Positions 1 through 39,084 of a stretch of 64,000 bases of DNA are shown here, piece by piece; positions within the stretch are counted from its first letter, which is position 1, and each line of letters begins with the position of its first letter. The notes beneath the pieces were generated by a model. The model saw only the letters and a program-made list of their open reading frames with translations, searched no databases and was not told where the DNA came from. This DNA is from Takakia lepidozioides (lineage: Eukaryota > Plantae > Bryophyta), in contig CM060732.1 in NCBI GenBank assembly GCA_030704615.1, forward strand, positions 73,160,001 to 73,224,000. Direction: 5' to 3'. The position numbers and the translations under genes were made by a program.

Positions 1-1454
1 AAGGACAGAGATGATCTCAGATGCAAAGGTTTCTTCCTTCATTCTCAGGCCAACAACAGTCGGGTGTGACTTGTTGGGATTGTGGAGGACCCCATGTCAA
101 GAAGGATTGCCCGGAGAGAGGCAAAGGGTCGGCACAGGCACAGCTGCTCCTGAGCCAAGAGGAGCAGATGTGGATTTTGACCCACAAAGGGGGGAAGCAA
201 GTCAACAGCCAAGGCTTCCACAATCTTTCACATTGACTGAGACAGTGCCAACTATGCCATCGATGGCACCCGCTTGCCCAAGTGTGTCGGATGTAGAGCC
301 ACGAGTGCTATTGGGGAGAGTTGGTGTGGCTCGGGAAATGCCAGTGGGTGGTGCTGCAAAGCAAGGTGCAGCTAGTACATTGTTGGGGGTGGCTACGGCG
401 GTTTGCCAAGCTCCATTGTTTTCTACAATGACCATTGCAATGCAGATTCGACCAGCGGCTATGTTCAGACTAGCAACTAGACTCCGTGAGAGTGCAGATG
501 CATTGGCACTGTCTGCGGAGATAGCAGATAAGGTATAGTCTCTGGATGCTTTGGATTCGAGGGTAAAGTCAGCCACAGCTGCGTCATGGCAAGCGGCAGC
601 TGCAAGGTTGCAGGAGTTGCCAGCTAGGCCAGCCATTGAGCGCAGCATGGTGACTCCTGGGGTAGTCTTGGTGGACAATCAGGATGGAGTGTTTCAATTG
701 GGTGCCCAATCGGGAGGAGGTATAGGCCACTACGGGTCTTGTTGGACTCGGGAGCACAGCCATTGATGTTGGGGAGAGCAGCAATTGCAGGCTTAGGCCT
801 TACAAAGGCGGATTTGGAGCCTTGCCCTTTCCAAATTCAAACATCTTGGGTGGTTCAGAGAAGGCGCGAGGGATTACACGCCATGAGCTCTGCATTTGAT
901 TGCAGCCGGATCATCCTACGGACAGCTCAGTCATGAGAGCTAAAGCCATTGTTACGGACGCGATGTCCTATGATGTGCTTGTTGGTGGGGCTGTGTTGTA
1001 CCCTATGGGCTTTACTTTGGACTTTTGGGAGGAAACGGCATCCTATAGGCCGGAATGGCAGTCAAGGGATGGTCGACGTGCACTGCTCCCAGTGCGGTTT
1101 ATTGGAAATGTAGCGGTGGATCATAGGAACATGATGCCCACATTGGCTGTATTCTCAAAGGTGGTGGCTTGGGGTGGTGACCTCTTGGAGGGCAATAGTC
1201 ATGCAGATGATAGGCCACCACCCGATGAGGACAAACAATTGGCATACAAGGCTGATTTGCTTCCTTATGTGCCTGTTCATATTCCACTATGGGGTACAGT
1301 TGGGAATTTGCATCGAGTAGCAGGCGAGTGTGTGCACCAAGCATGGTAGGAGACCTATCCATTGGTGAGTGAGGGGAATTCAGTGACATCACCTGGACCT
1401 CCTCAGTTAGCTCCTTTGGACACAGTGCCCATTATCTGGCAACAACCTGACTCA

Positions 1455-2380
1455 GGCATTTGTTTGCTAGACCTGTTTGGAGGCATGAGCACTGGGCTTG
1501 CAGGAGTGTTGCAAACATGAATCAAAGTACGCAAGTACTTGTATGTGGAGAAGGATGAGATTGCTCTGTGTGTTTCCATGCGCCATGTTGCTTCGCTCAC
1601 ACCTAAGTATCCTGAGTTGTTGCCTCTCTTAGCAATTCAAGGGTACCAAAAGGCCTTGCCAGCAGACATTACCTTGCTGGGGGCGAATGATTTGGACCGG
1701 CATGGTGCCATTGAATTGGTGATAACTGGGTGGCCTTGCCAAGGACATTCACCCGCAGGTCATGGTAATGGTTTGCAAGATGCACGATCGCATCTATTTT
1801 GGGAGATGCTGCGAGTGTTGCATGATTTGCAGGTGAGGCAAGTGCAACCTCTAGCTTACATCCTGGAGAATGTTCCTCCCAGTGTACATCAGATCCGGTC
1901 ATGGATTGGACCAGCCGTATTGTTGGATGCAGCTGCAGTGGGTTCACGGGCACATAGGCCTAGGTTGTGATGAACCAATCTTGCACCACCAGAGTTGCTC
2001 AAGAGAGTATATGATTCCATTCAACGGCCACCCAACCTCATGGTTGAGGGCATTTTGGACCAAGGGAGGCAACCACAGAGAGTGCGACATGATGATCGTC
2101 CACCTTTGGCAGTGGTCAATCAAGTGGGGCAGCCACTTGCAACCTTGCCTACGCTCATGAGCTTCCCTCGTCTCATGCTTTTCGAGACAATGGTCCTGGG
2201 TTGATTTGGGACAGTGTGCCACATCAATTGGTGGAGCCCAATGCGGATGAGCGAGAGCGGGCAATGGGATTTGCCACGGGCACTACAGCTGTGCCAGCTC
2301 TGTCAGAGGCATCACGACGTCAGGTGTTAGGTCAGACAATGGATCTCAATTGCTTGACATGGGTCATTGGCTTGTGTATG
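1455..2380 (+). pseudogene. DNA (cytosine-5) methyltransferase domain, DNMT3-like, embedded in the Gypsy polyprotein
   Basis: Motif I LDLFGGMSTG (1467-1496), motif II YVEKD, motif IV GWPCQG (1728-1745), motif VI ILENV (ENV at 1866-1874), motif VIII AHRPRL, motif IX ERERAMGF, motif X RRQVLGQTMD (2315-2344). In frame with the protease ORF (900-1349); stops at 1518 and 1968-1973, frameshift near 2165-2180. Confidence 0.92.
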
Positions 2381-3001
2381 GCTGAGCAACGGAGATTGCA
2401 AGCATTGGTGGCTACTTCCGCACTTCCATTGGATATTGCACCCTCTCTGCCAACCGGGACGGTGGAGGCAGTGAGTGGGGGCGAGCACAAGATCATGGGG
2501 TGCAAACACCCATGGCAGATGTGGGATGAGATGCGCAAAGAGAGAGTCATTGGATCTCTCAAGCAGCAATATGATGAGTGGGGAGAGCCATACACTGAGG
2601 ATCAATTGGAGGCCAAGGTGGCTAAGGTTTTTGAAGAGGTTGAGAATGTTTCTTATTCAGAGGATGTTCTCAAGGTGGCTATGGCGGAGCAAGTGGAGGC
2701 TACGCCATAGTCAGAGTGGGCGGACAAGGCCCAAGAGGTTGCTATCTAGCAACCAAAGGATTCGTCTCCTACCTCCAAGCCTGGTGTACCCAAGGTTGTA
2801 GTCACTGAGGACAATTGGGAACCAGATGTTGGACCTACAGTCACCGGACGAGAGAGACGGAGGATCCAGCGATTTCTAAGGGCTTATAGAAATTGCTTTG
2901 CCTTCGGTTTGAAGGATTTGAGGAGTTTGAAGGGTCAGGAGATTCGTATTGATTTGGCAAGTGACACACCAATCTTTTGAAGGCCCTACCGGTATAGTGA
3001 C

Positions 3002-4260
3002 ATGGAGAGGTCATTGATCCAGTCACGGACTATGAAGTTGTTCGAAGCTGGATTGGTGGAGTTGTCAGGCGGGGAGTATGCCTCGGCAACAGTGCTGCCA
3101 GCTAAGAAGGATATCTATGGCAATTGGACAGAAAGAAGGATGTGTGGGGACTATCGTCCTGTGAACCGTCAGACTAAGTCCGATAGATATGCCATGCCAA
3201 CTCCAGAGGAGATCTTTGATGCCATTGGGCATGCAAAGGTGTTTAGCACATTGGACTTGCGATCTGGTTACCACCAGTTGCCGATCAAAAAGGCTGACAA
3301 GCAAAAGACGGCATTCTGGGGGATTGACCAACATGGGAAGGATTGTTTGTACCAATGGCGGTTCTTACCGTTTGGGTTGAAGAATGCTCCTGCAGAGTTT
3401 CAGAGGGTCATGGATAGGATTCTCGCTGGGCTAGACTTCGCCCGGTGCTACATTGATGACATCATCGTCTTTAGTGCTACGGTTGAGGAGCATGAGAGAT
3501 ACCTTCAGGTGGTGTTTGAGCGCTTGAGAGCGCACGGGTTGAAACTCCACCCCGGAAAGTGCAAGTTCTTCCACAATCAGATTGAGTATCTGGGTCACAT
3601 GATATACCCTGGAGGATTGGGTGTTCAACAGACAAAGGTGGAGGCCATTGCATGCATTCCACGCCCCATGGATGTGAGCAGAGTTCGTGCTTTCATGAGA
3701 TTGGTAAACTACTATCGACGGTTTGTCAAGGGATTTAGCAGCATTACAAAGGCTCTTACCAAGTTGACCAAGGTGGGTCATGAGTGACAGTAGGAGGAGG
3801 AGCAGAAGGAAGCCTTTGAGGAACTCAAGGCTCGATTGACTTCTGCACCTATTCTGAGGCAGCCTATTCGGGGGCGGCCTTTCCAACTACATACGGATTG
3901 GAGTATGCTGGGGATTGGAGCAGTCTCACACATGTGGATGATGAGGGAAGAGAGTTTGTAGTGGCATATGCTAGCTGCTCGAACAATGATGCCGAGGCAA
4001 AGTATAGTTCCTATGAAGGGGAGTGTCTGGCTGCAGTATGGGCAGTGACACATTTTAGATGCTACCTCTATGACAATCGCTTCATTCTTGTCATGGATCA
4101 CCAACCATTGAAGTGGTTTGATGGAGTCAGACAAGCTTACAGGGAAGCTTGCACAGTGGGCACTTATGCTTCAAGAGTACGACTTCCAGGTGGTGCATCG
4201 AGCTGGAATAGTCAACCGGGATGCGGATGGATTGAGTCGCAATCCATGCTCAAGTGAGCT
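3002..4260 (+). pseudogene. Gypsy reverse transcriptase and RNase H
   Basis: RMCGDYRPVN, LDLRSGYHQL, LPFGLKNAPAEFQR, YIDD, KCKF..YLGH; RNase H motifs follow with stops and frameshifts. Confidence 0.95.
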
Positions 4261-6396
4261 TGATGATACAGGAGCTCGATGGCATGGTGAGATGGACAAG
4301 GAGATGGTGCCAGGATGGCATGCATCTGCCTTTTTATGCATTCTAGCAATGGGAGCTCAAGCTAGTCCATCCCATGTGATTGGTCATAGAGATAGTGTGC
4401 ATGACGATCCAGAGATCAGTGTGGAGCTTGGTGGTGCTAAGGATGTACATGAAGATGCAACAGTGTTGGCCTACCTTTGTACTAGAGAGACAACAACTAG
4501 TGTGACTGCTAAGGAGAGAAATCGGATCCTACAACAAGCCAAGAGGTTCAAGTGGGAGGGGACTCACCTACTCCGAGTATGGGAGGATGGACGAGTGAGG
4601 ATTGTGCCTCATCCAACACAGCGAGCGCGATTGGTACGCCATGCCCATGAGGAGTTGGGACATTTTGGGGTGCGGCGCACTCATAGTTTGCTGCAAGGAC
4701 AATATTGGTGGCGGGGCATGCACACGGATGTGCAATAATTAGTGGCAAGGTGCATGGTGTGTGATAGAGTGCAGGCTTTTTTTAATGCACCTACTCCACA
4801 ATTGCATCCTTTACCCATTATGGGTTTGGGCTATCATTAGAGTCTTGGCTTCGCAGGCCCATTGCCACTGACGATTCGCCATAACAAGTATGTGCTGGTG
4901 ATGGTGGAACATTTCTCCAAACACTAGAAGAGAAACCGGCTTTTTCCACGGTTTTTTTCACACTTTTTGCTGTGGAATCAGCCGCAGTCCACACCTGCCG
5001 TGGGCGTAAGGAACGACTAGTGCTTTCGGACATCCCGTGGACGGCCTGGCTCTCGAGTGGCCCTGTGGAAAAGTCCATGGGTGGCTTTTTCCACGGGAGG
5101 CTTTTTCCATGGGTGGGCTTTTTTCACGTGGTGCATGCTGACATGGCCGCTGACATGACCAATGGCATAGCTGACATGGCAGAGTGTGAAAAAAGCCAGT
5201 GTGACATGTTTCACGGCGGATTTCACACCTTGAACAAGCCACTATGCGACACGTGTCATATTTCACACCTTCGACAAGTCACTATGCAACACGTGTTCGT
5301 TCCTGTGTGGTGATACACATTAATTAATTATTATTTGCTTTCCAATATTAAGTTTGAATATTAATGGATTTAATTATTATATTATTATTATTATTATTAT
5401 AGGAAAAATGGACAGTGGCCTGGATGAGAACATTATTAAATAACAAAATATTGAAATTATGTTTTTAGAAATTATATTTATTCGCTCAGATACCAAAACA
5501 CGCCCTTTGTAGGGAAGGAGAGTTTGCCTTAATGTCTATGCTGAGTTGCATCTCCTACTTTCTGTAATCTAATAGACATTCACTTTTTTCCCTCGGTTGT
5601 CCCACCCTTGACTGTGGTTAGAAAAAACATTCATTCCACAGCTTCTCCTCATCTCTGTTACATGTTTTTGGATACTTTCCTATTGTCACTTTGGCAGTAT
5701 CAAGTCAAAATCACTCCAAACTATGTACCATCTACCCATGCAGGTTTCTTGTAGCTAACCCTCCACAAGGAATCATAAGTAATCTGGAGCTTGAAATTTG
5801 GCCCTCTTGGATGACACTCTATCCCTGCTCCTTCAGCTATCCATGCCTCTGCACAGATCATGCATACATCTTTGCATTGTTGTTAGCAGCTGACAATGAC
5901 AGCCTAGATTTGTTCCAGCAAACACCCAACTCAACTTATCACACCAGTTCCTATTCTCAATTGCATCTACCACTCTGTAATCCAAAGGCATTTACCTTCC
6001 AAGACGGTTATCCCAACATTGACTGGGGTCAGAAAAATATTCATTCCACAACTTCTCCTCTCTGTTACCTATTTCAGGATACTTTCCTATTGTCACTTTG
6101 GCAGTATCATGTCAAACTCACTCCAAACTATCAAAGGTTCACTCAACCAGCTAACTTGCAGAATTCTTAAAACATGAAAATTTAGGGCGATTCTGATAAG
6201 AGGGGAAAACATAGTGAAATGTGTTGAAGAAGGTGCCTTGATTAGCATTGCCTGATTTTATCAATTGTGCCGCTGCTGTTGCGGCTTCCAGTTGACCATC
6301 TACCCATGCAAGTTTCTTGGAGCTATTTTTCCACGGGGAATCACCCATTCCCGCATCATTGCTCATAGGTCTCCAAAGCCTCCATCCACGCCTTTG

Positions 6397-9144
6397 CTGT
6401 TACAACCCTTGCCGATTCCAGAGGGGACTTGGGAAAGCGTCTCGATGGATTTCATGACCGCTATGCCGCTGTCAAAAGGATTCGATGCAATCATGGTGGT
6501 GGTGGATAGGTTCAGTAAAATGGGCCATTTCATCCCCACCAAGGAGACGGCAACGACGCAGGAAACAGGGCGACTTTACTTCGCCCACGTCTTAAAGCAT
6601 CATGGAGTCCCGAAGGATATTGTCTCGGACCGCGATCCAAAGTTTACGAGTAAATTTTGGAGGGCACTTTGGAAGAAGATGGGGACGGGGCTGAAGATGA
6701 GCACCGCCTTCCGACCTACGACCGATGGCCAAACGGAAAGAGTGAATTCCGTAGTGAAGCAGATCTTGCGGAATTACGTGTCGGCAGACCAAACAGACTG
6801 GGTGGAACACTTAGACGCGGCAGAGTTCTGTTATAATAACACAGAACACTCCGCAACGGGAGTTTCCCCTTTCGTATTGGTCTATGGAAAAACAGCTCTG
6901 GTGCCGACAAGTTGGGCCGCCCAGGATGTTGAGGAACCGGCAGTAGCGGCGGTACTGGAAGAACGCGAGCGTTTGTTGAAGCTCGCAAAGTACAACATTG
7001 CCAAAGCTAGGAAACGGTATGAAAGGCAGATGAATCGAAAGCAGAGGGAAGTGAAGTTTGAGGCAGGCACGGAGGTCTGGCTGAACATCAAGAATTTCCG
7101 ACTACCTCCGGAAGTGAGTCCAAAGTTCGTACCTCCGTATGCGGGACCCTTCGCATCCGGAAGGTGATGAATGAGGATGTGTATGAATTGAAGCTGCCGG
7201 CAAACAACAAGGTGCATCCAGTATTCCACGTCTCCCTTTTGAAGCCTTACTTCAAAGATGAAGTGCGTCCGAATCGGCATCAAATGTTGCGTCCGCCACC
7301 TGTGCTGTTGGATCATGAAAATGAACCTGAGTACGAGGTGGAGGCAGTACTTAAGTCGAGGAGGTTCAAGAACCGAGAAACGGAGTATCTCGTCATATGG
7401 AAGGGCTATCATCATGTGGAGGCATCTTGGGTGCGTGCCTCAGAAATGGGAAACGCATCCGAGGCGGTTGCAGTTTTCGAAGGGCGACCTCAAAAGCGGA
7501 AGAAGCGTTGATGGGGACATCAACCTTGGAGCGTGGGGGAGGAAATGCATGCTTAGCCCGGCTTAGCTAGCTTAGGAATCCGATTGCAAAAACTTGTATT
7601 GTACAAAAATTTGTTATAAAAGAAATGGGTTCCAGATGTTGTGCGTCCTATTTTGTTTGGAATGGTGATGCATGGTGTGGTTGGCTAGTGTGTAAGATGC
7701 ATGCTAGCTTACAAAAGTGGGAGAGGTAAATTGGGTTAATTGTGTGTTTGCGCAGTGCCGAAATCGGGTGACTCCCATCCAAGGGGCAAGGAAACTTGCG
7801 CCTTCTTTAGGAGTTCACGTACAAGTGCGCACCTGGCACGTGCGCGTACTATAACTGCGCTACCGAGGGGGTTGCCTTGTAGTGCGGGCTAACGCGGAAG
7901 CTACATGCTTCCGTTCATGTACTATAATCGTGTAGCCTCGGGACGAAGTCGTAGTGCGGCTTCGCCGTGTTCCCGTACCTCAGGCCAACATTCCAAGGCG
8001 GACCCAATTGTAGTGATTGGGGCGCGCGGTTGGTTCAAGGTTATCTTCCCAGTCAAAGAGGGTTTGAGGTGAACCCTTGCTCAAGGTGATGCCAAAAGCG
8101 GCATCATGAGCGGTCGCAAGCAATGTTGTTGCAGTAAGGCGATTCGATCCTCGAGGAGGATCGTTCCTTGGCCTTGAAGTAGGCCAAGAAGAGTGCACTG
8201 GGAGGAGCTTGAGAGGCTCCACCCTTGGGCGAGACTTAGAGGAAGTCGGCCGAACTAGCTAGTGGAGAGTAGAGTCAAGTGTGGGGTTTGGTTCTTTGCC
8301 ATGGGACGCCATGGTACGGAAACAAACTCCTTGATGTGGGACGCCACAACTTGGATGTTTGTTTCCACAAAATGGACAAGCCAATGAGGACATCGACTCC
8401 CTGTTGGTAGGGGTGTGTGTCACGGCCCTTTGCCTTGAGGGCGGGGGGGTCGGGACACAAGAGGGGCTGCCCCTGTGGTGGGGGCAGTGGCAGCGATAGG
8501 TATGGGGGGCTGAAGCACCCTTGAGTGCCCAAGGCACTCAAGGAGGCGGAGGCGCTCACTAGGTGGAGCCCCGCACACCGGGTTGCGGTGGGGGTGGCTC
8601 CACAAGGGGTGGTGGTAGCTAGCGGGACTTAGTGGGGGTGGCATAGGACTCACCCTGGGGCGGAGACCTCGTGGTGGGAGTCATGGGGAGTCTTGGGACT
8701 CATCACGGTCCATAGGGGCCGTGGTGAGTGGGCCAAGACTCACCGCGACTCATCACCGGGAGTCGAGGGTGTTCGTGGTGGTTTGCCATAAAATGGCATG
8801 GTTGTTTGTGAAACCCCCGCGGACAGCTACAGAAGTATATATAGGGAGTAGTAACCCCAAGAACGGTGCAAGCCTGTTTGGTGACCAAAAACTAGTGAGT
8901 AAGCGAGCGAGCCGGAAAGCGACCAAAGAGTGGGGAGCTGTTCCCGGACTGCCAACTACCAAAGGGAATTCCGCTGGTTCCAAACCATTGGAGGGTTATT
9001 TGGGAGATCAAAGGGGGACCGTTATGCCCCGGTGAGCAGCCGGAGCTCCAAGTTGGCCCGGCGGCCAGGTTGGGAGTTAGGCGCGCGCATCAAGCGAGTA
9101 ACTATGACTTGAGGGGGGAACTTACAGAAGTGAGGTGCGCGACA
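6397..9144 (+). mobile_element. 5'-truncated chromovirus (Ty3/Gypsy) element: integrase core, chromodomain, 3' UTR and 3' LTR
   Basis: LLQPLPIP..SMDF..VVVDRFSK..IVSDRDPKF..TDGQTER..GPF; chromodomain YEVEAVLKSR..EYLVIWKGY..ASW (7330-7511); LTR 8418-9144. Confidence 0.9.
8418..9144 (+). repeat. 3' LTR of the chromovirus element
   Basis: Starts TGTCACG after a G-rich tract, ends CGCGACA (6/7 inverted match), contains TATATATA at ~8835; PPR sequence begins immediately after. Confidence 0.65.
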
Positions 9145-10017
9145 TGCAAGGTATGCACAACAGGGACGTGGGATGGAGGCTTTGGAGACCTATGAGCAAA
9201 TGATGGGGGAAGGGGTCCAGCCCGGCCACATCATGTTTGTATGCATTGCAGGCCTGGCAGCCCTGGAGAAGGGCAAAGAGGTGCATGGGGATATCATCAA
9301 AGCTGGAATTGTACCTAATGTCATTCTAAACACTGCCCTGGCAGCTCTGGAAAAGGGGAAGGAGGTCCATGGTGACACCTTTAGAGCTGGAATTGTACCA
9401 ACTGTCATTTTGAACAATACCCTAGTGGATATGTAGGCAAAATGTGGGTGCATCGGGGATGCAAAGGGAGTGTTCAACACTATGGCTGAATGAGATGTGG
9501 TGTCGTGGAGTGCGATGCTTGCAAGGTATGCATAGCAGGGACGTGGGATGGAGGATTTGGAGACCTATGAGCAAATGATGGGGGAAGGGGTCCAGCCCGG
9601 CCACATCATGTTTGTATGCATTGCAGGCTTGGCAGCCCTGGAGAAGGGCAAAGAGGTGCATGGGGATATCATCAAAGCTGGAATTGTACCTAATGTCATT
9701 TGAAACACTGCCTGGGCAGCTCTGGAAAAGGGGAAGGAGGTCCATGGTGACACCTTTAGAGCTGGAATTGTACCAAATGTCATTTTGAACAATACCCTAG
9801 TGAACATGTATGTAAAATGTGGGCGCATCGAGGATGCAAAGGGAGTGTTCAACACTATGGCTGAACGAGATGTGGTGTCGTGGAGTGCGATGCTTGCATG
9901 GTATGCACAGGAGGGACGTGGGATGGAGGCTTTGGAGACATATGAGCAAATGATGGGGGAAGGGGTTCAGCCCGGCCACATCATGTTTGTGTGCATTGCA
10001 GGCCTGGCAGCCCTGAT
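9145..10017 (+). pseudogene. Tandem PLS-class PPR fragments, 375-bp period
   Basis: Repeated VVSWSAMLA.YAQQGRGMEALETYEQM..ALEKGKEVHGD..LVDMYAKCG..DAKGVF; unit starts at 9173, 9548 and 9923; premature stops. Confidence 0.9.
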
Positions 10018-10029
10018 TTAAATCAGTCA

Positions 10030-10708
10030 CCTCAACCATGACCACAACTTCTAAAAGAGGATCAAGAGAGGGAGTCCATAATGCCTCTTCTGGCTCTTCT
10101 GGGCATGTGAAGATGCTTTGTGAGGGAGGCAGACTGAAAGAGGCTCTACAACCTTTAAACCAAGGAGCATTTCAGCAGATTTAGATATGTATGTCTGTCT
10201 CTTGCTTAAGTATCAAAATGAAGGGTCTGGAAGCTGGAAAGCAGGTGCACACTCACATTATCCAAAGTGGATTCACGCCAAGTGTTTTTCTCCTCAACCC
10301 CCTTGTGAACATGTATGTTAAGTGCAGGAGCATCATGAATGCACACCGAGTGTTCAACGGAATGCCTCAACAAACTTTGATCACGTTGAATATAATGTTG
10401 GCAGGATTTAACATGGGTGTGGTAGGAATGCTTTGGAGACCTATGAGCAACAGCTGCGCGAAGGGGTGAAGCCCAACCACATCACATTTGTTTGTAATGC
10501 ATGTGCAAGCCTGGGAGCTCTGGAAAAGGGCAAAGAGGTCCATGGTGACATCGTCAAATCTGGAATTGTACCCAATGTCATTCTGAACACTGCCCTGGTG
10601 GACTGCATGTATGCCAAATGTGGGTGCATCGAGGATGCAAAGGAAGTGTTTGACAGTACGGCTGAACGAGATGTGGTGTCGTGGAGTGCGATGATTGTAG
10701 GATATGCA
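10030..10708 (+). pseudogene. More divergent PLS-PPR gene 5' fragment
   Basis: LCEGGRLKEAL-type N-terminus, GKQVHTHIIQSG..LVNMYVKC..AHRVFNGM, NACASLGALEKGKEVHG..MYAKCGCIEDAKEVFD; frameshifts. Confidence 0.85.
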
Positions 10709-10810
10709 CCCGCTTGCTTTTTGTACTCGCTCCGGTTTTGTTGGCATGTGGTGCATGTCTTGACATACTCCTCTGCCTCCTCCCTCAGTTTGGGCCAGAA
10801 ATACTCTTTC
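10709..10810 (-). mobile_element. Displaced piece of the chromovirus integrase zinc-binding region
   Basis: KEYFWPKLREEAEEYVKTCTTCQQNRSEYKKQAG, which normally immediately precedes LLQPLPIP (found at 6397 on the + strand). Confidence 0.85.
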
Positions 10811-11955
10811 TGCCAGGCCTGCAATGCATACAAACATGATGTGGCCGGGTTGGACCCCTTGTTGCTCATAGGTCTCCAAAGCCTCCATCCCACGTCCCTG
10901 CTGTGCATACCTTGCAAGTATCGCACTCCACGACACCACATCTCGTTCAACCATAGTGTTGAACACTCCCTTTGCATCCCTGATGCACCCACATTTTGCC
11001 TACATATCCACTAGGGTATTGTTCAAAATGACATTTGGTACATTCCAGCTTTGAAGGTGTCACCATGGACCTCCTTCCCCTTTTCCAGAGCTACCAGGGC
11101 AGTGTTTTGAATGACATTAGGTACAATTCCAGCTTTGATGATATCCCCATGCACCTCTTTGCCCTTCTCTAGGGCTGCCAGGCCTGCAATGCATACAAAC
11201 ATAATGTGGCCGGGCTGGACCCCTTCCCCCATCATTTGCCCATAGGTCTCCAAAGCCTCCATCCCACGTCCCTGTTGTGCATACCCTGCAAGCATCGCAC
11301 TCCACGACACCACATCTCGTTCAACCATAGTGTTGAACACTCCCTTTGCATCCCCGATGCACCCACATTTTGCATACATGTCCACTAGGGTATTGTTCAG
11401 AATGATATTTGGTACAATTCCAGCTCTGAAGATGTCACCACGGACCTCCTTCCCCTTTTCCAGAGCTGCCAAGGCAGTGTTTAGAATGACATTAGGTACA
11501 ATTCCATCTTTGATTCTTTGATGATATCCCCATGCACCTCTTTGCCCTTCTCAGGGGTTGCCAGGCTTGCACAAGCATTGCAATGCACACAAACATGATG
11601 TGAGAGGGCAAAACAGGCTGAAATAGGTCAAAGAAGAAGATGCCCTCACCACATTGTCCTTGAGATTGTGTCATGACTTGACCAACCATCAACCCAGAAG
11701 GACCTCTTGTGTGTGCTGCTTGTGTATGTAGTCAGGTAATGTCGGTTTGGTCTGTGAGATCGAACCACCATGGTGTAGCTGAGTAGGCAGAGATTGAAAC
11801 ACGGCTTGCTAAGACCAAGCTAACTCTCCCAAGAACGGCAAGCTCGCAAGAATGTTGCGAGCTTCTCCTCGTCTCATCTCCTCCTCCTCTCCTCCTTCGC
11901 TCAACGCCTCCATCCCACGCCCCTGCATATCCTACGTTCATCGCGTTCCATCCCT
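10811..11955 (-). pseudogene. Tandem PLS-PPR fragments on the minus strand (same unit as 9145-10017)
   Basis: ORF 11023-11472 and neighbours repeat the same motifs; a further short piece WNAMNVGYA..GRGMEAL at ~11900-11952. Confidence 0.88.
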
Positions 11956-13669
11956 CGGCTACTGGTGTGGCGCATGGAGACAAAAAAAAACGCCAAGTCC
12001 CAGCCCTCCTCTATATTCACGATTACCCTAATTGGCAACCTTATTAGCAACTTTTTAACTTTTTAACCTTTTGCACTTTGATTCATTCTAGGTCATAGGC
12101 TAAAGTCCTGCTACCAGACTTGTTTAGAAAACCAAAACACCACGTAGACAAACATTTGATAATGATAATAAAATGTATTACCATTGGGCTGGTTTGAACA
12201 CTTGTTGGTAAATTTAGGTTAGGATTTTTAGGTTAGGATTTTTTCGAAATATTCTGGTTTTTTCTTTGATGTGTGAGATGACAAAGTCCAAGCATGTCAC
12301 ATAAACAAGGAGTTCAACGTAAGGATGATGCAAGTGATTTGTGGCAAAAAGTGTAAATCATGCCTATGCCTATTTGTCCTAGTTGTGTCATAGGTTGCAA
12401 CGGAACGAGGCCACCTTTGAATGGGATCCCCATGCTCATTTCACCAAGGGCATTATAGACTTTATAATGTAGAGATTGAAAATGGGGTGTATTCTTCACT
12501 TGCTAGTAGCCCATTGTGCAGATTTCTAAACATGAACATGAAGTTCATAATCATTTTCCAAGGGCATCATTCTCAAACTCCCCATACACCACAATCAGTG
12601 GAAATAATTGTATGTTCCCATTTCACACAGGTGTGTAACATGCCATGTAAACTAAGCCAACCCCTGCCACGCTCATGGCTGTTTTCACTCTTGCCTGGGG
12701 TGTGGACCACATGTGAGACACCCCATAGTTAGGGCATATTTAGACCCACACCTTGGCTCAGTGTACAGACCCGCGATAAAAGCCGTGGAATGTGCCAGGT
12801 GTGAGATGGCAGAGCTGTGGAAAAAACCGGTTTCTCTTCTAGTGAAATGGATTGAATTGGTGGCATTGCCTGACAAGGCAAGTGAGGGGGCTGCGTATGC
12901 ATTCTTAGATCGAGTGCTTAGCCAATCTGGTGCTCCAGCCGAGGTACTCACAGACCAGGGGAGAGAGTTCTTGGGGGAGTTTCAGGCTTTGTGTGAGCAA
13001 GCCTTGATAGATCACCGCACTACTTCTCGGGATCATCCCAAGGCTGATGGCTTGGCGGAGAGAGTTGTTCAGACAGTCAAGAGAGGTTTGCGCAAGTATG
13101 GTTTGCAGAAGGGACACCTAGGAGATTGGGACCTTCAGCTGCCTTGGCTAGCTATGGGCTATAGGTTCAGCAAACAAGCTTCACTTGCCTCATTCTCACC
13201 TTATTTTCTTCTCTTTGGCCGAGAGCCGGATTTGCCTGCATCTATTCGCAGGGAGACTGCAGTAGTCCTCAACCTTGATGATCCGGATGTGTGGACACAA
13301 GTATGTGCCCAACGGGCAGAGTTGTTCAAGAGAGTCATGCTTATGGATTTTGAGAACCTTGCTATTGCCCAACACCGAGATACATTGAGGTACGCCACTA
13401 TATGTGGAGGGGGATATCGGCCAGGTGTTCGGCGTTTCTATCCTGGGGACTATGTGTATCTGCAGCAGACAACGCCTACAACCTTGGATGTCACAGCAGG
13501 TCGTGTGATTCTAAGAGTCCGGGAGGTGTTGCCTTCAGGAATATTGATTCTGGAGGGTCGAGATGGCATGGTATGGAAGGACCATGTGCGCAATTGTGCG
13601 CCATGTCACCTTCCACATGTGGATGGGAGGATAGATCCCAACCTTGCAGTGGTACCTGCAGGGTTGCGT

Positions 13670-13813
13670 TGCATGCTATGTGGGCATGCTGGTGGTGCCG
13701 CGACCATGTTGATGTGTGACAAATGCTCAAGGGGGTGACACATGGGATGCTTGACGCCGCCACTTGAGGAGGTTCCTACTGGAGAATGGTTGTGTCCACG
13801 ATGCCTTGGATAG
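13670..13813 (+). pseudogene. PHD finger at the integrase C-terminus
   Basis: CMLC..[32 protein letters not shown] (C4HC3); internal TGA at 13736 at the position of a typical W; terminal TAG at 13811-13813. Confidence 0.92.
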
Positions 13814-14076
13814 AGGTAGTGGGGCATGACAGTGGTGAGGTTGACAAGTGATCCAAGGTCTAGCTAACGGGAGTTCAATGCCATGGACACCCAATTGAAG
13901 CCATGGATTGCAGGAAGGCGAGTAACGATGGGGCTACTTTTGCACCCAACCTCTTGATCTATTGCCTTTAGATACTGGGACTTGGGCGATTGATGACCAC
14001 GCGATGATCTTATTGGGATGGGTATTTGTCAGCTATCCGGTGTTAGAGGGACCTAATCACCAGCTAGGGGGGCGAT

Positions 14077-14612
14077 TGTGGTATAGCTTTCTAGGATTGT
14101 GTGCTTAGATTTTGTGGTGGACAATGATGTATGTTGTGGCACGATGCTTAGGTGCACGATAGCTGTCATGGTTTTAGTCATGGTTATCTAGAATTACCTA
14201 CTTCTATAACTAGGACATTTTAGATATTTATATTTATATTTTGTGTATTGGGACTTCATTTGGTCTCACATGCCAAGTGAGGTGTCGAGCCTCACTTGGG
14301 ACATGGGGATAGGTTTTCCCCTTGTGAGGATGGAGGAGGCTCATCTTCTTGTAGTTGAGCCGCCATGAGCCTCTCTCACCTCCATAGCTCTAGGTATTGA
14401 GAGGGAGTGTGGTGAGGGCTTTGTAGGGTGGATTCCCTTAGCAAGGGTGCCCTTGGCTTGACTTAGTTTATGTGATTGAGTGGATTCATGAGTGGAGGGT
14501 TTCTATTATGTTCACTTTCATTATCATTGTGGTATAACTTTCTAGGATTGTGTGCTTAGATTGTGTGGTGGACAACGATGTATGTTGTGGCACGATGCTT
14601 AGGTGCACGACA
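14077..14612 (+). repeat. 3' LTR of the MTase-Gypsy element, with an ~85-bp direct repeat at both ends
   Basis: Follows purine tract AGGGGGG; starts TGTGG, ends GACA; 14077-14161 is nearly identical to 14528-14612. Confidence 0.7.
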
Positions 14613-17921: not shown

Positions 17922-20900
17922 TCAACTAATTATTGACATCAAACAGGAGGGAGGCTTGAGGATATCGGCTGCAGTCCACCCGTATGCGTTTCTGCAGAAG
18001 GATTGCGCAGACCAGCCTGAGCCACTATAAGTAATGTTGATATCCGACATTCCAATGTTCGTGCATGCCACAGAGTCGCTGCATGCAAAATCTACGCCAA
18101 CGAGAGTCGATGAAGATCCAGCAATGCCGGAATATATGATATTGCTGACTTGTACTGCTCGTGCCTACGCAACAATCCACCAACATACGATGTAGACTGT
18201 TTGGAAGTCAAGCCCCTCTCATTTACTACAATGGCTGTACATAGTGGAGGAAGAGAAAAATCGTGTAGCAAATCTGAGATGCATTAATGAAGAACACCCA
18301 CCTCGTTGCTGTACTGTCGGCAACACAAAATTTCAGTAAGTTAATCGTCACTAAGCAGAGATATTTACTCATTTTAATTCAGTGATAGCGGGTGTGTGTG
18401 CACAGTTATTATTCTTGCACCAGGGACAAGTGGCCAGCCAAACATTGTACAAACCACTGGTTTTGCAGCAGACACGATACTGTTAGTATGTACCTCAATT
18501 CGATATCAGGGCTCGCTCGATCTATTCTAATATAATTTTGAAGGTTCAGCTCCTCAGTATGAGCTAATTGTCAAACCACCATTGGCAATCTCATGTTCAC
18601 TTTAACAATCGCTGGCTCGACAATCAACATTTGTGAATCAAGGATTCCGCAACTTGTGGGCACTAGAAAGTATATTGGAGAGACTAGCTTGCAGGTAAAG
18701 GAAGGACGTGCAGAAAACACTGCAAGTTATCAGATACTTTGCATACTAGTTTAAGAAACAGATTCAACGCGGATCTCACAATCCAAAAGAAATCGTTTAC
18801 ATTGGCAGTGCAGTTGGTGTATCCATTGCAGTAGTATTGGTCGATGACTATGGGATTCTCCACACGATTCAAACTTATGTTTCGGAAAGATACTCCTGTC
18901 ACAAACCCAGATCCTCCCTAGAAACATTTCAACCCAACAGATTTTTAATATGGACGACAACATTTTGAATACATGCACGTACTTCCACGTACTTGGACCA
19001 AGGACCTTACTTACAAAAGTGGTCCAGAAACTTGTTCTAAATCATATCTCTCATCATTCAGGATGGGCTGTCTTTACCTCAACACTCACCTCTTGGTAGC
19101 TGCCATTTCACAAAGCAGCTTTGGCACGTCCGAAATCTGAACATTCGCACTAAAATCTCATTTTGGGAAAACTGCAAACATTTTAACTGATAAGTTTACC
19201 TGCCAAGTTTTGATACGTACACCATACATGGTGCGAACAAACCAGACGTTGTGTACAGAAATATTGGACACTGCTGCATATGAGCCGTTTTCTCCAAGGC
19301 CTCCGATGCTGCAGTCCGTGAAATCTCGGACCACATCAGACGAAGTACAAATGTAAGACATTAAAGGGAGGTCACGCATGCTCTGTTTATGGAACTGCTG
19401 AAATTCCTTGTTCAAACTTGTTGATACGTGACAATGTGCATATTTGAGATGTGAGAGAGGGTTGGATCTCGTATCACAATTACCTGATGCCATGTCCAGG
19501 CCCGCATAGAATGTTATGTATGGCCACATCGGAACAGCCCGTCTTAATTGCAATACAATCATCCCCTGAGGTTTATCAACGTATCACATGCAGCTGAACC
19601 GTTATCAAATAGACGCATTTGAAGGACTACTGCACAAATTGAGGGGGAATGGAAAGAAAGTAGGGTCGTAATCAGATCTCCCCTAAGAGTATCCTACGAG
19701 ATATCAGTGTCTATGTGAAATCGTTCAATCCTGAGAGATGCTTTAGACTAGCCTGCAGGCTTAAGTTAGAAGCATGAATCCGGAGGTTAGTCGTACCCGT
19801 AGCAATTTTGATGCTCCTCAACCCAACCTGGTGCGAATTCGCCATATTTATCCCATCTGTATTAGGACTAGTAGCTGAAGCCGAAATGGTAATATTGCTC
19901 ACTCGGAAACAAACACAGGTATCAATCTTCAGATGAATCTGTGGGGCGTTCCTGATGTTGAGGCCATGAATGACGGCGTTGCTGCAAGTAGAAAATCTCA
20001 TCAACTGTAGAATGCGTTGATGAGGCGACTTGTTAGACACGAACTTAAACAAGACGGTCATATTACTTGGGTCGCCTCGCCGACTGCGACGGCAAGAACC
20101 AAAGAAAACATGGTTTGCGCGAGCATCATGAAACGCACGGCCATTTAAGGCTTTCAATATAAGGTCCACAACGCACCCTCAGTAATCGAGCTATTCGTAA
20201 ACACATTCCAACAATGAGGGCTAAGAAAAAGGTTGAGCATATTGACGAAGCCACTCACGTAAGGTCGTGCAATGCTCTTGGAGGCAGACCGCCACCAGGT
20301 TTGACCAGCACCATCAAGTCTGCCCGATCCTTGTAAGGTAACGGACACCGAGAAGAATAATATCCAGTCAGATGGAAGAGGACTAGACCATCTACTTCCG
20401 CAGCTTGGTGCCACTACCTTACCATCAACCTGCACAACAGTTTGAACACTCAAATAATGTTTTAGCCCGGTCACGAGCCACAGGACTTTGAAGGTTACAT
20501 GATCTATACTAGTAAGCTTCTATAACTTCAAGGGATGTGCCCACCTTGGTCACATTTGACGGCGGAAGAGATTATGTGCATTTACTTGAAAAATTCCTAT
20601 CATCGAGCTTCATCTGCAATTAACTGTGCACAAACTTTGTCTCTTCAGTGTCAATTGTTGTATCTAGAGCTCAGAAGTTAAGAAACCAGAGACCAAATTT
20701 CATTTCAAGGTTTTAAGCAGTTCACAAACTTTTGATTTAAGTATTGCGGGCACGGAGGAAGGGAAAGCTCTGAAGATGAATGAATGAGCAGCACGGCTCA
20801 AGAAGCGGAGGTGAACAAGGCATTCGAGATGTGTGGATGGGAACCTGGAAAACTAGGTTGCCTAAGCAAGGACCGGCAAAGGTAATAGCACCAATAAGGA

Positions 20901-21484
20901 AGGTCCCTCCAGCCGGAACCTCCAAAGTGGACGAATAGACTTGACATGAAGCATTCCATGCATTTCGAAAGGCCTGCAGACATGTGCCATAAACCAGGAC
21001 AAGTTTCGAAGTTCAAAGAATGTCGAGACAAGAAGAGTTCGTTGGGCATGTGTGATTTATCTCTGGAACAGTTTGTTGGACCTTTCCCATCAGAAGATCA
21101 TGCGGCAGATGAAGAGAATTTCGGGAGGGTAAAAATGAGGCAGACTTCATGTATTCAGTGGCATGTATGTAGAACATTTTGGATAATTATAACCGCTCTC
21201 AACTCTTGCTTTTATGACCTGAATCTCACCTGAGTGTCATCCGAAACACCGTCGCCTTTTGCTCCATAATCATACACACTGATTTGTCGTGGACCATTGA
21301 CACTGTAATTCCCGAGGTGCGGTTCGGCAGTGTCCTCTGATGTTGCTGGACTGTCCCGATGATCCAGTTCGCCAACATTTGGTGGTAAATGATGGTGGAA
21401 TCCAGACGCATGAACTCTGGTTAGCGTAACTGAGAGCAACAGAGTACATTGAATACAAACTTGAAAGTAGAAACATAACAGCAT
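17922..21484 (-). CDS. Polygalacturonase (GH28), 8 exons
   Basis: Exons 21484-21230, 20973-20845, 20429-20259, 20004-19797, 19565-19484, 19308-19200, 18917-18801, 18164-17922 with GT-AG boundaries; motifs YGAKGDG.DDT, NTDG, GDD, GHG, RIKT; signal-peptide-like start (ATG choice uncertain). Confidence 0.92.
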
Positions 21485-23789
21485 CTTGAGCAAGTGCTCC
21501 AGAAAGTAGATAAAATCAGGGCACAAACAAGAGGATTGAATCGAAGGACACGTCAAAGGAGCAAGTGCGTGACTGGTCTTAAAACTGACACCCCTTTTAG
21601 ACTTTCTTATTCTTGAAAGTGATCATGCGAAACCACAACAAATGCATTGTATAACTTGCAGAGAAGTCCAGGAACCACTTGTGAATCTGAGACTCTGCGT
21701 TCAAGAAACTGTGAAGTGAGAAAGGTGATACATGTGGACAAAAATAGCATGTCAACTCACATGTCTACAACAGTCCAAAGCCCACAGCTTTCTAGAAGTT
21801 CTAACTTCCTTATCAGAAAGTGATTGAAAAGGAGACAAGACAACTACGTTATCCAGAGCAGAGTGAAAGTAGGATGAACATTGAAGACAGAACGAGAGCC
21901 TCCATTAATGGAAAGACCACAGCTTGTTAGCCATCCCATTTTTCTCATGTTTTCTTGAAGCAATGGAGAATCGAAAAGAGTGCAGCGTGGTAGGTAAGCT
22001 GACTGGACATCACAGTTGTGTGGGATCACCAGCCGTAAGACATGTAATCCATCATCGGGTGTTGCAGGCTGACGAGCTCGATCACAATAGTTTCCTCTCG
22101 ACCTAATATCAGAAATTAAAATATCGATGTTACTGGGAGCTAACACCTGGAGACCTCTCGCCATGAACGCAGGTTGAGAGAGCGTGTCGAAACATCATCC
22201 TGTCTGTGAGCTGCGACGAAAGGCGTCCTTTCAGCATCAGACCTCGAAAATCAGCTCGTCACAACGACTATCACGCTATGTAGTAGCAGATTGCGGCCAA
22301 TTGTATACTACTAGATGACGTGACCAGTTACAGTAAATTTGAAAAGCTGGCTGCAAGAAACTCTGCAATATATCAAGTGCTACTATCGGTTGGTGACATT
22401 TTGTACATAGACATACCGTGTATATAGTTCATACTCTTTAGTTCTGACCAGTTGGTAGATCAGATAATATGTATATGTCAGATATGTGGAAGTCATGACT
22501 AGAATCCGTTTGTGCATGACATCTTGAAGCAGCCACTGAGCCACAGCTACAATTTTCAGCTCCCCTGCTTAAATTGTGACTCTTTTATGCGGTTCAGGAG
22601 AGAAGGACGAGCGGAAAGGGCCAGAAATTACGATCAAGTTTGCTTGAGCGCTCGTGTAAAAGGATGAGCTTCAGGGTGACAGGTCGATTGAAGCAAATAC
22701 AAAGGGATGGCCACCTGGCTCCTTTTCGCCTCAGATATTGCCAGGCCTACCTACCACTGGACGCCTGCCAACCATACTAGAATTCTCCGCAGTTCTCTCA
22801 ACAACAATCTCCCTGATCCAAAGCCGACACAAAACAGCTACAGACGGCCTCCTCCTCCTCCGGCCTCTTGTCCAGCTTGCACGTCCTTTCAATACCCTGT
22901 CCTCCTGGTCTTAAGTTCCAATCAGAAATTTTTAGTAGTTACTCTATTCGTGAGCCTCTCTCAGCTCAATGCAAATATCCTACTCCTACCCTGGCCCAAC
23001 CCGACCTGCATTGTACATATCCGCCTCCCCCTGCACAACTCCAAAATCTTGTCTCCACACTTGCTGTTCAAATGCTTCCCCCTTCCAGAACTGTTACAAT
23101 CCCCTCACTCTCCTTCCTCTTTATCCAATATCTAGTTCAGTACCATGGAGTTGAGGAGTCCAAACCTCATCACGAAGTGGAATGTGGACCTATATTAAGA
23201 TACACATTCGGAACATGTTAGTATTGAGGTAGATTATAATGTAAACCATGCTTCAAAAGGTTGCTCGACTTTCCTCGAGTGTCAGTAGGTATGAAAATTC
23301 CTGCAGGGAGAATCGACATACTTGTCGGAAGCTTGCATAAGACATTCCATCATTTTCTCAAGAAATCGAATGTACAATTATACATTCATAAATGCTGGAA
23401 CTTGGAGTTGGCCATGTGCAGAGAGGAACTTTGATTGAGGACTCTGCTTGCACCGTCTGCACCAGCTGACTGCATCATGCTCCTACAACCAACACCTAGG
23501 CTTCATCAATAAACTCTTGGCAGCTTCTCATAAACAGATAACTGCAACACCAACAAGAACACCTGTTCAGCATTTTGACCTGTGTGAAGAGCAAGAGAGG
23601 AATGTCCCCATTCCTGGACAGCCCTTGAGCAAGGATCTTGAGGGTTTCTATCTAGGTATAGACCACAAAACACGTGTACCAAAATTTATACAAATTTATT
23701 TATAGAAAAGAACCAGAGGAATTTAAGCAAGAGCTAGACTACTTTTGATAGCGAAAAAAGTATACCAAGAATAGTTGGGGACCTGGATG

Positions 23790-37436: not shown

Positions 37437-38390
37437 TCACCATGGACCTGCAAAGATGACAAATCCCCAAGCCCTTGGGCATCTCTCAGTTACCGCGGCT
37501 TTTTCTTCCATGTGATGGTCTGGGGTATGACGCTGGTTGAAGCGCCCAACAAGCCCTGGGCCTCGTTGGAAGCAGCTTCCACATACATCGTAGCCAACAG
37601 TTTCTGGACAATCAACACAGTGGAACCTCTTTCCTACTATGGGCATCATCCCACATCCATCGCAACCTACATTTCGATGAACCGGGCCTTGTGACTGCCG
37701 AGTCTCTTCAGCTCCTGCTTGCATTCCTTCAACTCTGCTGTTTTTCCCGTCAATTTCCTGCAACGTGACCTCATCACGCCGCTTGTTGTAGTCCGCACTG
37801 AATGTACGCTCTAGGTACTGGTGAAGCTCAACACAGACTTGTGGGAAAGAGCCAGGGCTACAGCTGCCACACAAGGGGCAGTTCAAGACTTTCTCCTTGG
37901 AAACACACGTGTGGCAGAACATATGACCACAATTCAACACAACTGGCTTGTAAAGCAGTTTATCACAAGCCTTGCACTGTAATAGATCGGATGCAGAAGC
38001 ACCCGTCGTAGAAGTGCCTGCCAGTTCCTCATGATCGAACTGTGGAGAGGACATGCCCTGTTTCTCCTCCTCTTCGTGAATCTCTTTGGCTCTAACCAAG
38101 TACTCTTCTGGGGCCAACTTGCAGAATAAAGAATGAAGTTGCTCGCAGACTCGTGGAAGATGCCAGTACGACTTTTGGCAGATTGGGCAATGAGAAATTG
38201 TAGTTGTATTCATGGATCGATGAATACACCACAAACAAAACATGTGGCCACAGCTCGGGACAACCGGCTTGTAAACCAGATCCAGACATATCGCACAATT
38301 GAAAGGCATTTTGTCCATTAATTTCTTGTACCTTGACGAGCGTCTTTTCCTACTAGCCTCTTCGTCGGCCACGCTTCCCCTGTACTCCAC
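37437..38390 (-). CDS. PRT1: PRT1-like E3 ubiquitin ligase (RING-RING-ZZ), intronless
   Basis: Two C3HC4 RINGs (CAIC..CGHMFCLWC..CPIC; CKAC..CGHMFCHTC..CPLC) and ZZ (GCDGCGMMPIVGKRFHCVDC..YDVC..FNQRH); first in-frame ATG at 38318, true start uncertain. Confidence 0.85.
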   Translation of the reverse strand: MEYRGSVADEEASRKRRSSRYKKLMDKMPFNCAICLDLVYKPVVPSCGHMFCLWCIHRSMNTTTISHCPICQKSYWHLPRVCEQLHSLFCKLAPEEYLVRAKEIHEEEEKQGMSSPQFDHEELAGTSTTGASASDLLQCKACDKLLYKPVVLNCGHMFCHTCVSKEKVLNCPLCGSCSPGSFPQVCVELHQYLERTFSADYNKRRDEVTLQEIDGKNSRVEGMQAGAEETRQSQGPVHRNVGCDGCGMMPIVGKRFHCVDCPETVGYDVCGSCFQRGPGLVGRFNQRHTPDHHMEEKAAVTERCPRAWGFVIFAGPW

Positions 38391-39084
38391 ACCGTGTCAA
38401 CTGGTCTTCCTCCAGGCAATTCAAACCACCCTCTCCCCGTCCTCAAACATCTGTCGATGCTCAGCTATGCATGCGTCCACACATCACTCAATTCGACCGC
38501 ACAGATCTAGATCCACCCAATTCAAAACCTCTCTCTCTCTCTCTCTCTCTCAAGCATCCATCGATCCATGCATCATGGGTGTATCATCAGCGCAGAATTC
38601 ACACAATTCACACAATTCCTCAACGCCCTTCATACATCTTCCCTCTCTCTCTCTCTCTCTCAATCATCCAAAGTCTACCCTGTTCCAGGCCCTCCTCCAA
38701 CCCTCTGCAAACGATCTCCGAAGTCTTCAGGATCTGGATCTGTGCATCTCCTTGCATGTGATCATAGGAAGAATAAGTGGGGCCTCTCCTGAGCTCACCT
38801 CTACCCACCTTGGCTTACTTACTGCAACCCTTTCCTTGGGTGTAGTTACTATCTACATCATCGTCCTTGCCACTAATTGGGAGAGGATAACCTAGAGAGG
38901 CACTGTGGATTTGATGGATGGTAAGTCATTTCATCCATGAGTTTGACTCTTGTACCGGGCCCCACAATTAGGTCAGATCTGGATTACGAAATGTTGGTCT
39001 GCAAATTTCAAAGGTGGGTTTTAGGAGGCAGATGTGATCTCGTGGCGTTTTGGGCACGGATGTGATGTGGTGAATGTGAATACA

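Follow-up and report, generated by a model that had tools for sequence, protein, structure and literature searches.

We describe a Ty3/Gypsy retrotransposon that carries its own DNMT3-like cytosine-5 methyltransferase, found in a 64-kb stretch of the genome of the moss Takakia lepidozioides (contig CM060732.1, positions 73,160,001 to 73,224,000 of the forward strand; hereafter the window, to which all coordinates refer). The methyltransferase appears to end the first open reading frame (ORF1, encoding Gag-protease-DNMT, or Gag-PR-DNMT), and is followed by a stop codon that is shared across the family and sits in a readthrough-type context. The best overall explanation, to which we give a rough probability of 0.55, is that this stop is read through, that the methyltransferase is packaged, and that it methylates the element's own new cDNA. 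The window copy lies on the + strand, with its 5' end outside the window, and consists of the following parts.

1..711, + strand: gag, 3' part, with a zinc knuckle (CWDC..H..C) at 72-110 found by motif scan
712..1064, + strand: aspartic protease, with LLDSGA at 739-756 and a tblastn match; frameshift near 845 in this copy
1455..2386, + strand: DNMT3-like C5 cytosine methyltransferase (PF00145, motifs I-X in canonical order); broken copy
2747..2755, + strand: in-frame stop TAG-CAA-CCA, the predicted family-conserved end of ORF1 (Gag-PR-DNMT); matches UAG-CAR-YYA
2981..3784, + strand: reverse transcriptase (RVT_1, E=3.1e-33), with YIDD at 3449-3460
3794..4149, + strand: RNase H (PF17917, E=1.2e-19), frameshifted in this copy
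4442..4921, + strand: integrase, N-terminal part (PF17921, E=5e-11), with an HHCC zinc finger at 4640-4762
4922..12844, no strand assigned: CACTA-type DNA transposon, a later insertion into the integrase and foreign to the retrotransposon
12845..13813, + strand: integrase core and C-terminal PHD finger (13670-13810), then a stop
14066..14075, + strand: polypurine tract, conserved with 15 loci (blastn)
14077..14612, + strand: split terminal repeats, B1 at 14077-14161, A2 from 14164 to ~14527 and B2 at 14528-14612

An initial annotation, made from the letters alone, had assigned positions 739..3787 to the element; that span covers part of it, and the element continues well past 3787, to 14612. 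In the gag part, a relative, P0002 (P numbers denote proteins and L numbers metagenome loci), gave a tblastn match at 401-715, and the same region is present in Gag-PR-DNMT proteins. The protease of the window copy scored under the family cut-off (PF13650, E=0.01). The ORF at 900-1349, earlier called the protease ORF, does share its frame with methyltransferase motifs I-VIII, and motifs IX-X share that of the reverse transcriptase, as had been stated; however, this ORF covers no more than the C-terminal half of the protease and a linker, with LLDSGA in another frame. The integrase core is 70% identical to the L065 integrase (tblastn), its rve match (E=3.6e-6) being under the cut-off, and the PHD finger was recognized by motif scan in the window and by Pfam (PF00628) in the relatives L064 and L065.

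A motif scan placed the C5-methyltransferase motifs where the initial annotation had put them, in I-to-X order and with the catalytic PC intact: I (DLFGG, 1470-1484), II (YVEKD, 1542-1556), IV (GWPCQG, 1728-1745), VI (ENV, 1866-1874), VIII (AHRPRL, 1950-1967), IX (ERERAMGF, 2249-2272) and X (RRQVLGQ, 2315-2335). Motif I comes before VI-X, which is the canonical, non-permuted order. The stretch 1521-1967 alone matched PF00145 at E=1.3e-11 (45 bits against a cut-off of 22), so that the check proposed earlier came out positive. DNMT3A was the best solved-structure match by sequence, and a profile built from 49 relatives ranked DNMT3A (6.6e-27) above DRM (3.8e-16), M.HhaI (2.2e-9) and DNMT2 (about 1e-4) in the PDB. 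A structure model of the relative P0001 (predicted local distance difference test score, pLDDT, 92.7) returned only DNMT3A/B/C among the top Foldseek rows (1.8e-19), and the best matches outside transposable elements were ant DNMT3s. The catalytic Cys and the motif VI Glu are invariant in all 49 aligned proteins (31-80% identity), and the motif VIII Arg is nearly so; the catalytic Cys was also present in 78/78 loci, which we do not count as evidence because these loci were fetched by the GWPCQG pattern. Collectively, motif order, PDB profile and Foldseek bear out the earlier reading of the domain as DNMT3-like, not DRM, as judged from sequence and predicted fold. Viral contigs (30 and 80 loci) gave only distant methyltransferases, with partial best segments and E no better than 2e-18, and we therefore see no viral donor.

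The methyltransferase had been described as lying inside the pol polyprotein. This part of the earlier description did not hold: stops at 2708 and 2747 separate the methyltransferase and reverse transcriptase frames in the window, and that at 2747 recurs in relatives. Methyltransferase and reverse transcriptase were in frame in 37 of 54 pairs, every one of these 37 had a stop in the linker, and in 36 of them the linker carried TAR-CAR-YY about 70-77 codons ahead of the reverse transcriptase start. At the DNA level, a TAR-CAR-YY stop lay 150-420 nt past the methyltransferase in 56/62 sequences, as against 7/317 background windows (equal windows in the reverse transcriptase-integrase region); ordinary premature stops had a context of this type in 12 of 714 cases. 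The stop reads TAG-CAA-CCA in the window and in L027, TAG-CAA-TCA in L064 and TAG-CAG-TTA in L065 and L066; the full CARYYA context thus recurs in four lineages (window, L027, L064, L065/66) whose flanks do not align. In L065, a single frame runs from 976 to 8227 and is broken only by the conserved stop, leaving an ORF1 with protease and methyltransferase and an ORF2 with reverse transcriptase, RNase H, integrase and PHD finger. The first Met past this stop comes at +117 codons, inside the reverse transcriptase, and in the window the next Met past 2747 is at 3002, beyond the start of reverse transcriptase homology. Consistent with this arrangement, all 26 database proteins checked of the class that ends after protease and methyltransferase terminate 58-182 amino acids past the methyltransferase (four full-length Marchantia models are among them, the stop there being known from protein models). 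Type I readthrough, the kind known from tobamoviruses, has UAG-CAR-YYA as its consensus (PMC3542737, citing Skuzeski et al., 1991; here and below, statements on publications refer to the parts of their text available to us). We read these patterns as indicating that the methyltransferase ends ORF1 ahead of a family-shared stop, and that this stop is not a product of decay. An enzyme encoded at the end of a Gag-PR-DNMT frame would therefore be made at the level of Gag, not of reverse transcriptase, and from the conserved readthrough site we would expect a bulk, capsid-level enzyme dosage, not that of a minor pol product.

The methyltransferase stretch matched 50 proteins at up to 65% identity. 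The named relatives come from Marchantia polymorpha, Calypogeia fissa, Sphagnum and, weakly, Riccia, and their annotation is nearly always hypothetical or unnamed. Our locus set comprised the best 80 of 97 metagenome loci, in 64 clusters at 97% identity. Among loci long enough to tell, a reverse transcriptase lay downstream of the methyltransferase in 48/55 and a protease lay upstream in 53/61, so the linkage of the three domains predicted for other copies is found. About 75 of the 80 loci make up a single moss-like family, which clusters with proteins of Sphagnum; L027, L061, L064, L065 and L066 are more distant. Open frames occur in L065 and in the Marchantia polymorpha protein Mp_4g09160 (P0014), which has an open Gag-PR-DNMT frame; members with open frames, as had been suspected, thus exist. 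The ratio of nonsynonymous to synonymous substitution rates (dN/dS) of the methyltransferase was 0.12 for L065/L066 (dS 0.25), 0.12 for L064/L065 and 0.18 for the window and L027, the last near saturation. Between intact relatives the ratio is thus far from the value of 1 that had been named as a warning sign. For L064/L065, the methyltransferase evolves faster than the reverse transcriptase (0.12 vs 0.05). To judge from these comparisons, the methyltransferase appears to be a stable trait of the family, maintained by purifying selection.

A wider search of 1.84 billion representatives gave matches to 269 proteins (E no higher than 1e-30; 150 listed), in two layouts. Class A has the methyltransferase before the reverse transcriptase, and class B has it between RNase H and a PHD-bearing integrase; the latter layout (RT-RH-DNMT-INT-PHD, for reverse transcriptase, RNase H, DNMT, integrase and PHD) was complete in 31 of 226 proteins, with 25 further examples in the tree set. 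Class B falls within the range P0058-P0259, its named members being the chlorophytes Chromochloris, Haematococcus and Cymbomonas. Named algal members of class A include Mesostigma viride and Closterium sp. NIES-53 (P0223, P0226), in which the methyltransferase stands ahead of the reverse transcriptase or follows the protease. The methyltransferase quick tree had two ant DNMT3 proteins as its only outgroup, no plant host DNMT3, DRM, CMT or MET1 sequence being among the search matches, and it leaves out 75 class B rows and most methyltransferase-only fragments; the reverse transcriptase tree kept 22 of the 68 unnamed class B rows. Within these limits the two trees are congruent. Class B forms one clade in both, and the stop-bearing elements cluster in both, with Shimodaira-Hasegawa-like approximate likelihood ratio test (SH-aLRT) values of 97 and 98 in the methyltransferase and reverse transcriptase trees. 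The window copy falls in a clade with the Marchantia, Calypogeia and Sphagnum sequences (SH-aLRT 99).

The window copy itself is dead, as the initial annotation had recognized: three stops in all interrupt its methyltransferase (at 1518 and 1968-1973), which also lacks 10 codons after ENV and is frameshifted near 2162. We placed contigs from four public runs, which represent at most two samples, on window positions 1-5400. Run X1 alone contributed 20,521 contigs across this region, methyltransferase included, and several of the breaks in the window, that near 845 in the protease among them, read differently in other copies; the breaks are therefore largely private to one copy of a repeated family. 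Thousands of diverged contigs, from the same or a close species, covered the methyltransferase; since contig depth does not equal copy number, we take this only as the presence of many diverged methyltransferase copies. Two single-contig joints in run X3 skip the methyltransferase (1122-2342 and 1391-2468), a hint of deletion derivatives. Over positions 1-5400, the window has A for G 121 times and T for C 101 times relative to X1, as against 62 and 51 in the reverse direction. This bias was seen against runs X1-X3 and X5 and is the pattern that deamination of methylated cytosines would produce after insertion. The observed/expected CpG ratio was 0.43-0.46 in the element, 0.96 in a nested chromovirus fragment and 0.46 elsewhere in the window, and this ratio does not discriminate self-methylation from methylation by the host.

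Next, we considered the ends of the element and its class. Three full-length relatives, L037, L059 and L071, have the layout A ... PPT-B-A-B (PPT, polypurine tract) with a CA end; L037 starts with TA, and all three loci are flanked by 4-bp target duplications. In the window, A2 starts with TGTCATG, B2 ends in CA, and B1 and B2 are 95.5% alike over 89 nt. The domain order Gag-PR-RT-RH-INT is that of Ty3/Gypsy elements, as are the TG...CA termini, the conserved polypurine tract and the 4-bp duplications in relatives; two equivalent long terminal repeats (LTRs) are absent, the ends being split as A ... B-A-B. No tRNA primer-binding site was evident by eye past A1 in three loci, and no tRNA search was made. 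Because the 5' A repeat was not found in L064 or L065, the split ends apply to the moss-like family and to the 3' end of the window copy only. We noted that the B1/A2 junction is a near-palindrome, CACGACA-NN-TGTCA(T/C)G (14155-14170 in the window), resembling an end-to-end integrase attachment junction; it recurs in L037, L059, L071 and L006 and is kept even in the distant L065. The elements are inserted by an integrase and have split ends. DIRS elements use a tyrosine recombinase instead of a DDE integrase and make no target duplication. We rejected membership of this class, given that the two L065 ORFs matched rve, H2C2 and PHD but no recombinase family, and given the 4-bp duplications. Chromovirus membership was likewise rejected: the integrase ends in a PHD finger instead of a chromodomain, and the chromodomain at 7062-7508 is part of a different, nested element. 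Split ends of this kind would likely escape standard two-LTR finders, which may be why the family has been overlooked.

Among the best 60 of 76 solved-structure matches, the PHD finger was closest to those of CHD4, PHF12, PHF21A, KAT6A, DPF2, ATXR5, KDM5B and AIRE, which we take to be readers of the unmodified H3 tail or of unmethylated H3K4 (H3K4me0). This bears on the mechanism that we propose. ORF1 would be translated as Gag-PR-DNMT, and a minority of ribosomes would pass the stop, adding reverse transcriptase, RNase H, integrase and PHD finger. The methyltransferase, at about one per Gag, would be packaged, released by the protease and brought together with the cDNA during its synthesis, and the PHD finger would steer the integrase away from active H3K4me3 promoters. 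A copy that is already methylated would then arrive in chromatin of a matching kind, with less damage to the host and less recognition as naked foreign DNA. Animal DNMT3 pairs a writer with an H3K4me0 reader through its ADD domain, and the element would carry a pairing of the same sort. We hold these steps, which draw on known biology, with unequal confidence. Readthrough of the conserved stop is very probable, and catalytic activity hardly less so; protease release and packaging are likely, and the role of cDNA as the main substrate is only somewhat better than an even bet.

Several observations weigh against this explanation. As ~75 of the 80 loci come from a single moss-like family, the number of independent lineages is about six. 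In that decayed family, dN/dS reached 0.61 for the methyltransferase, 0.42 for the reverse transcriptase and 0.69 for the protease, as expected where post-insertion decay dominates, and most between-family pairs were saturated. The stop context of the moss-like family, CAA-CCC, is one base off the consensus, with TAA in 14 of 48 such matches, and an in-frame ATG three codons past the stop would allow reinitiation there; L061 reads TAG-TAG-CCA. Relatives without a stop between methyltransferase and reverse transcriptase exist (P0065, P0215, P0217 and P0218), so that a high dosage is not needed everywhere, and the stop-less P0258 sits within the stop-bearing clade. The sharing of stop 2747 rests on other lineages and not on copies from the window's own species. 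Furthermore, the isolated methyltransferase domain of a related algal element, KnitGypsy-Dnmt3, was inactive in a yeast assay that its authors called inconclusive (PMC5890265). Finally, the evidence on the family is of sequence and predicted fold, and its enzyme activity is a prediction.

The strongest competing explanation keeps the architecture and the readthrough and has the enzyme act on nuclear chromatin instead, with the insertion site, existing copies (a self-limiting form of silencing) or competing elements as its target. A dosage at Gag level would be far above the need of one cDNA per particle, a role that benefits the host or limits the element is among the options raised in PMC5890265, and moss host DNMT3b methylates heterochromatic CHH (PMC6453930). 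On the other hand, ORF1 has no chromatin-targeting partner, the PHD finger being on the ORF2 integrase; fusion to Gag-PR would favor packaging; and in class B the domain sits between RNase H and integrase, beside enzymes that handle cDNA. We consider chromatin action unlikely, albeit worth keeping in view. More doubtful is that the stop is a true terminator, with ORF2 expressed by splicing, from a subgenomic RNA or by reinitiation. The ATG three codons past the stop and the deviating last base of CARYYA in the moss-like family would suit such a scheme, as would a Met 5 codons on in L061 and L066 and 14 codons on in L064. It fits poorly with an ORF2 that is in frame with ORF1, with the retention of CARYYA in the four lineages with non-aligning flanks, and with the distant next Met in L065 and the window. 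Slightly less probable again is a domain kept for nucleic-acid binding or particle structure that does not methylate DNA in vivo, or that methylates RNA. The yeast result for KnitGypsy-Dnmt3 and the faster evolution of the methyltransferase than of the reverse transcriptase in L064/L065 point this way; the invariant catalytic Cys and motif VI Glu and the nearly invariant motif VIII Arg of the 49 proteins, the activity of SymbioDIRS-Dnmt3 domains, which methylated CG (PMC5890265), and a profile far nearer DNMT3 than DNMT2 point the other way. That a fragment of host DNMT3 was captured once, or became nested, in the window copy, with no family role, as the heavy decay of this copy and its other nested insertions might suggest, can be dismissed: the domain recurs across the family, with its position and spacing kept in dozens of loci, without introns or a separate target duplication (the signs of capture named by the initial annotation), the methyltransferase and reverse transcriptase trees agree, and both the linkage to reverse transcriptase (48/55) and the dN/dS of 0.12 rule it out.

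More tentatively, and with odds somewhat below even, packaging and cDNA methylation may be part of a larger picture. The elements would form an ancient green-lineage clade of DNMT3-carrying Gypsy retrotransposons with a PHD integrase, spanning chlorophytes, streptophyte algae and land plants; in land plants, this clade would use readthrough, make a methylase at capsid stoichiometry and insert copies pre-methylated, aimed by an H3K4me0-type PHD finger and independent of host RNA-directed DNA methylation. If true, a mobile, self-written epigenetic mark would reside, unrecognized as "hypothetical proteins", in the Marchantia genome. The role of retrotransposon-borne DNMTs has been unsettled since 2018, partly because their hosts (dinoflagellates, Klebsormidium) are hard to manipulate; with open Gag-PR-DNMT frames in the genetic model Marchantia polymorpha, the question becomes testable. 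Bryophyte DNMT inventories and studies of de novo methylation may likewise hold an uncounted, transposon-encoded source of DNMT3-like enzyme.

As for the rest of the window, the CACTA-type insertion has 28-nt inverted ends with one mismatch and a 3-bp AAA duplication. It has no obvious transposase, and contains tandem PPR gene fragments at about 9130-11550 (Pfam PPR) and the nested chromovirus integrase-chromodomain fragment at 6256-7511. Three further features were noted.

about 19150-21620, - strand: host gene, glycosyl hydrolase family 28
37437-38396, - strand: host gene, double RING plus ZZ zinc-finger protein
58256-62481, - strand: long interspersed nuclear element (LINE)-type element, with endonuclease and reverse transcriptase in long open frames

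For links between DNMTs and reverse transcriptases, de Mendoza et al. 2018 reportedly cite a review by Iyer et al. 2011. The initial annotation had supposed that methyltransferase-bearing retrotransposons were not well documented in land plants, and we found no land-plant or readthrough report of such elements in the literature searched (subscription journals and repeat databases were outside its scope); Klebsormidium does have elements of this kind (PMC5890265). The available main text of that paper does not mention Marchantia, Physcomitrella, PHD or readthrough in a keyword check. PMC12344493 and the preprint 10.64898/2026.05.21.726589, as far as their accessible text goes, cite such elements for "streptophytes" only, and a keyword check of the latter gave no mention of land plant or bryophyte. 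The plant LTR classification PMC6317226, in the text at hand, mentions neither PHD nor methyltransferase, and keyword checks on the available parts of PMC6317226, PMC9985172, PMC12885004, PMC9477723, PMC11982613 and PMC12344493 did not turn up the window family.

Among known systems, host DNMT3s (animal DNMT3A/B; moss PpDNMT3b, PMC6453930) share the catalytic fold and motif order. By contrast, the element encodes a bare catalytic domain, about 20-22% identical to DNMT3A/B, without PWWP, ADD or introns, and inside a retrotransposon ORF. The conserved stop resembles tobamovirus type I readthrough in that a stop followed by CAR-YYA lies in frame between two polyprotein parts (PMC3542737); unlike MuLV and Tca2, where the stop is at the gag-pol border, here it lies between methyltransferase and reverse transcriptase, after the protease. 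SymbioDIRS-Dnmt3 of dinoflagellates, which performs de novo CG methylation in yeast and whose proposed substrate is its own cDNA (PMC5890265), and the EpiLTRs are likewise retrotransposons with a cytosine methyltransferase. The window family differs from the former in its DDE integrase and 4-bp duplications, and from the latter in that EpiLTR DNMTs are sister to DNMT4 and accompanied by DAM and a chromodomain (bioRxiv 10.64898/2026.05.21.726589). Chlamydomonas Gypsy-7a_cRei likewise has a Gypsy polyprotein with a PHD finger, for which an insertion bias was suggested (bioRxiv 10.1101/2022.06.16.496473); unlike the window family, it has no methyltransferase among the domains listed in its figure legend. 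The closest system is KnitGypsy-Dnmt3 of Klebsormidium nitens, similarly a Gypsy element with a Dnmt3 domain and DIRS-like split A/B repeats, with Ka/Ks <0.2 and with DNMT and reverse transcriptase in one ORF (PMC5890265); we compared it by its text description, no Klebsormidium-labelled sequence being among the matches used for the trees. In the window family, the DNMT is in frame with reverse transcriptase and RNase H and yet split off by the conserved stop, and the hosts are land plants, with relatives in Marchantia, Calypogeia and Sphagnum, instead of a charophyte. The family probably works like KnitGypsy-Dnmt3 and belongs to the same lineage; what is new is that the family extends to land plants, a model liverwort among them, that a readthrough-type stop ends ORF1 after the methylase, that the integrase bears a PHD finger and that relatives are spread across green algae.

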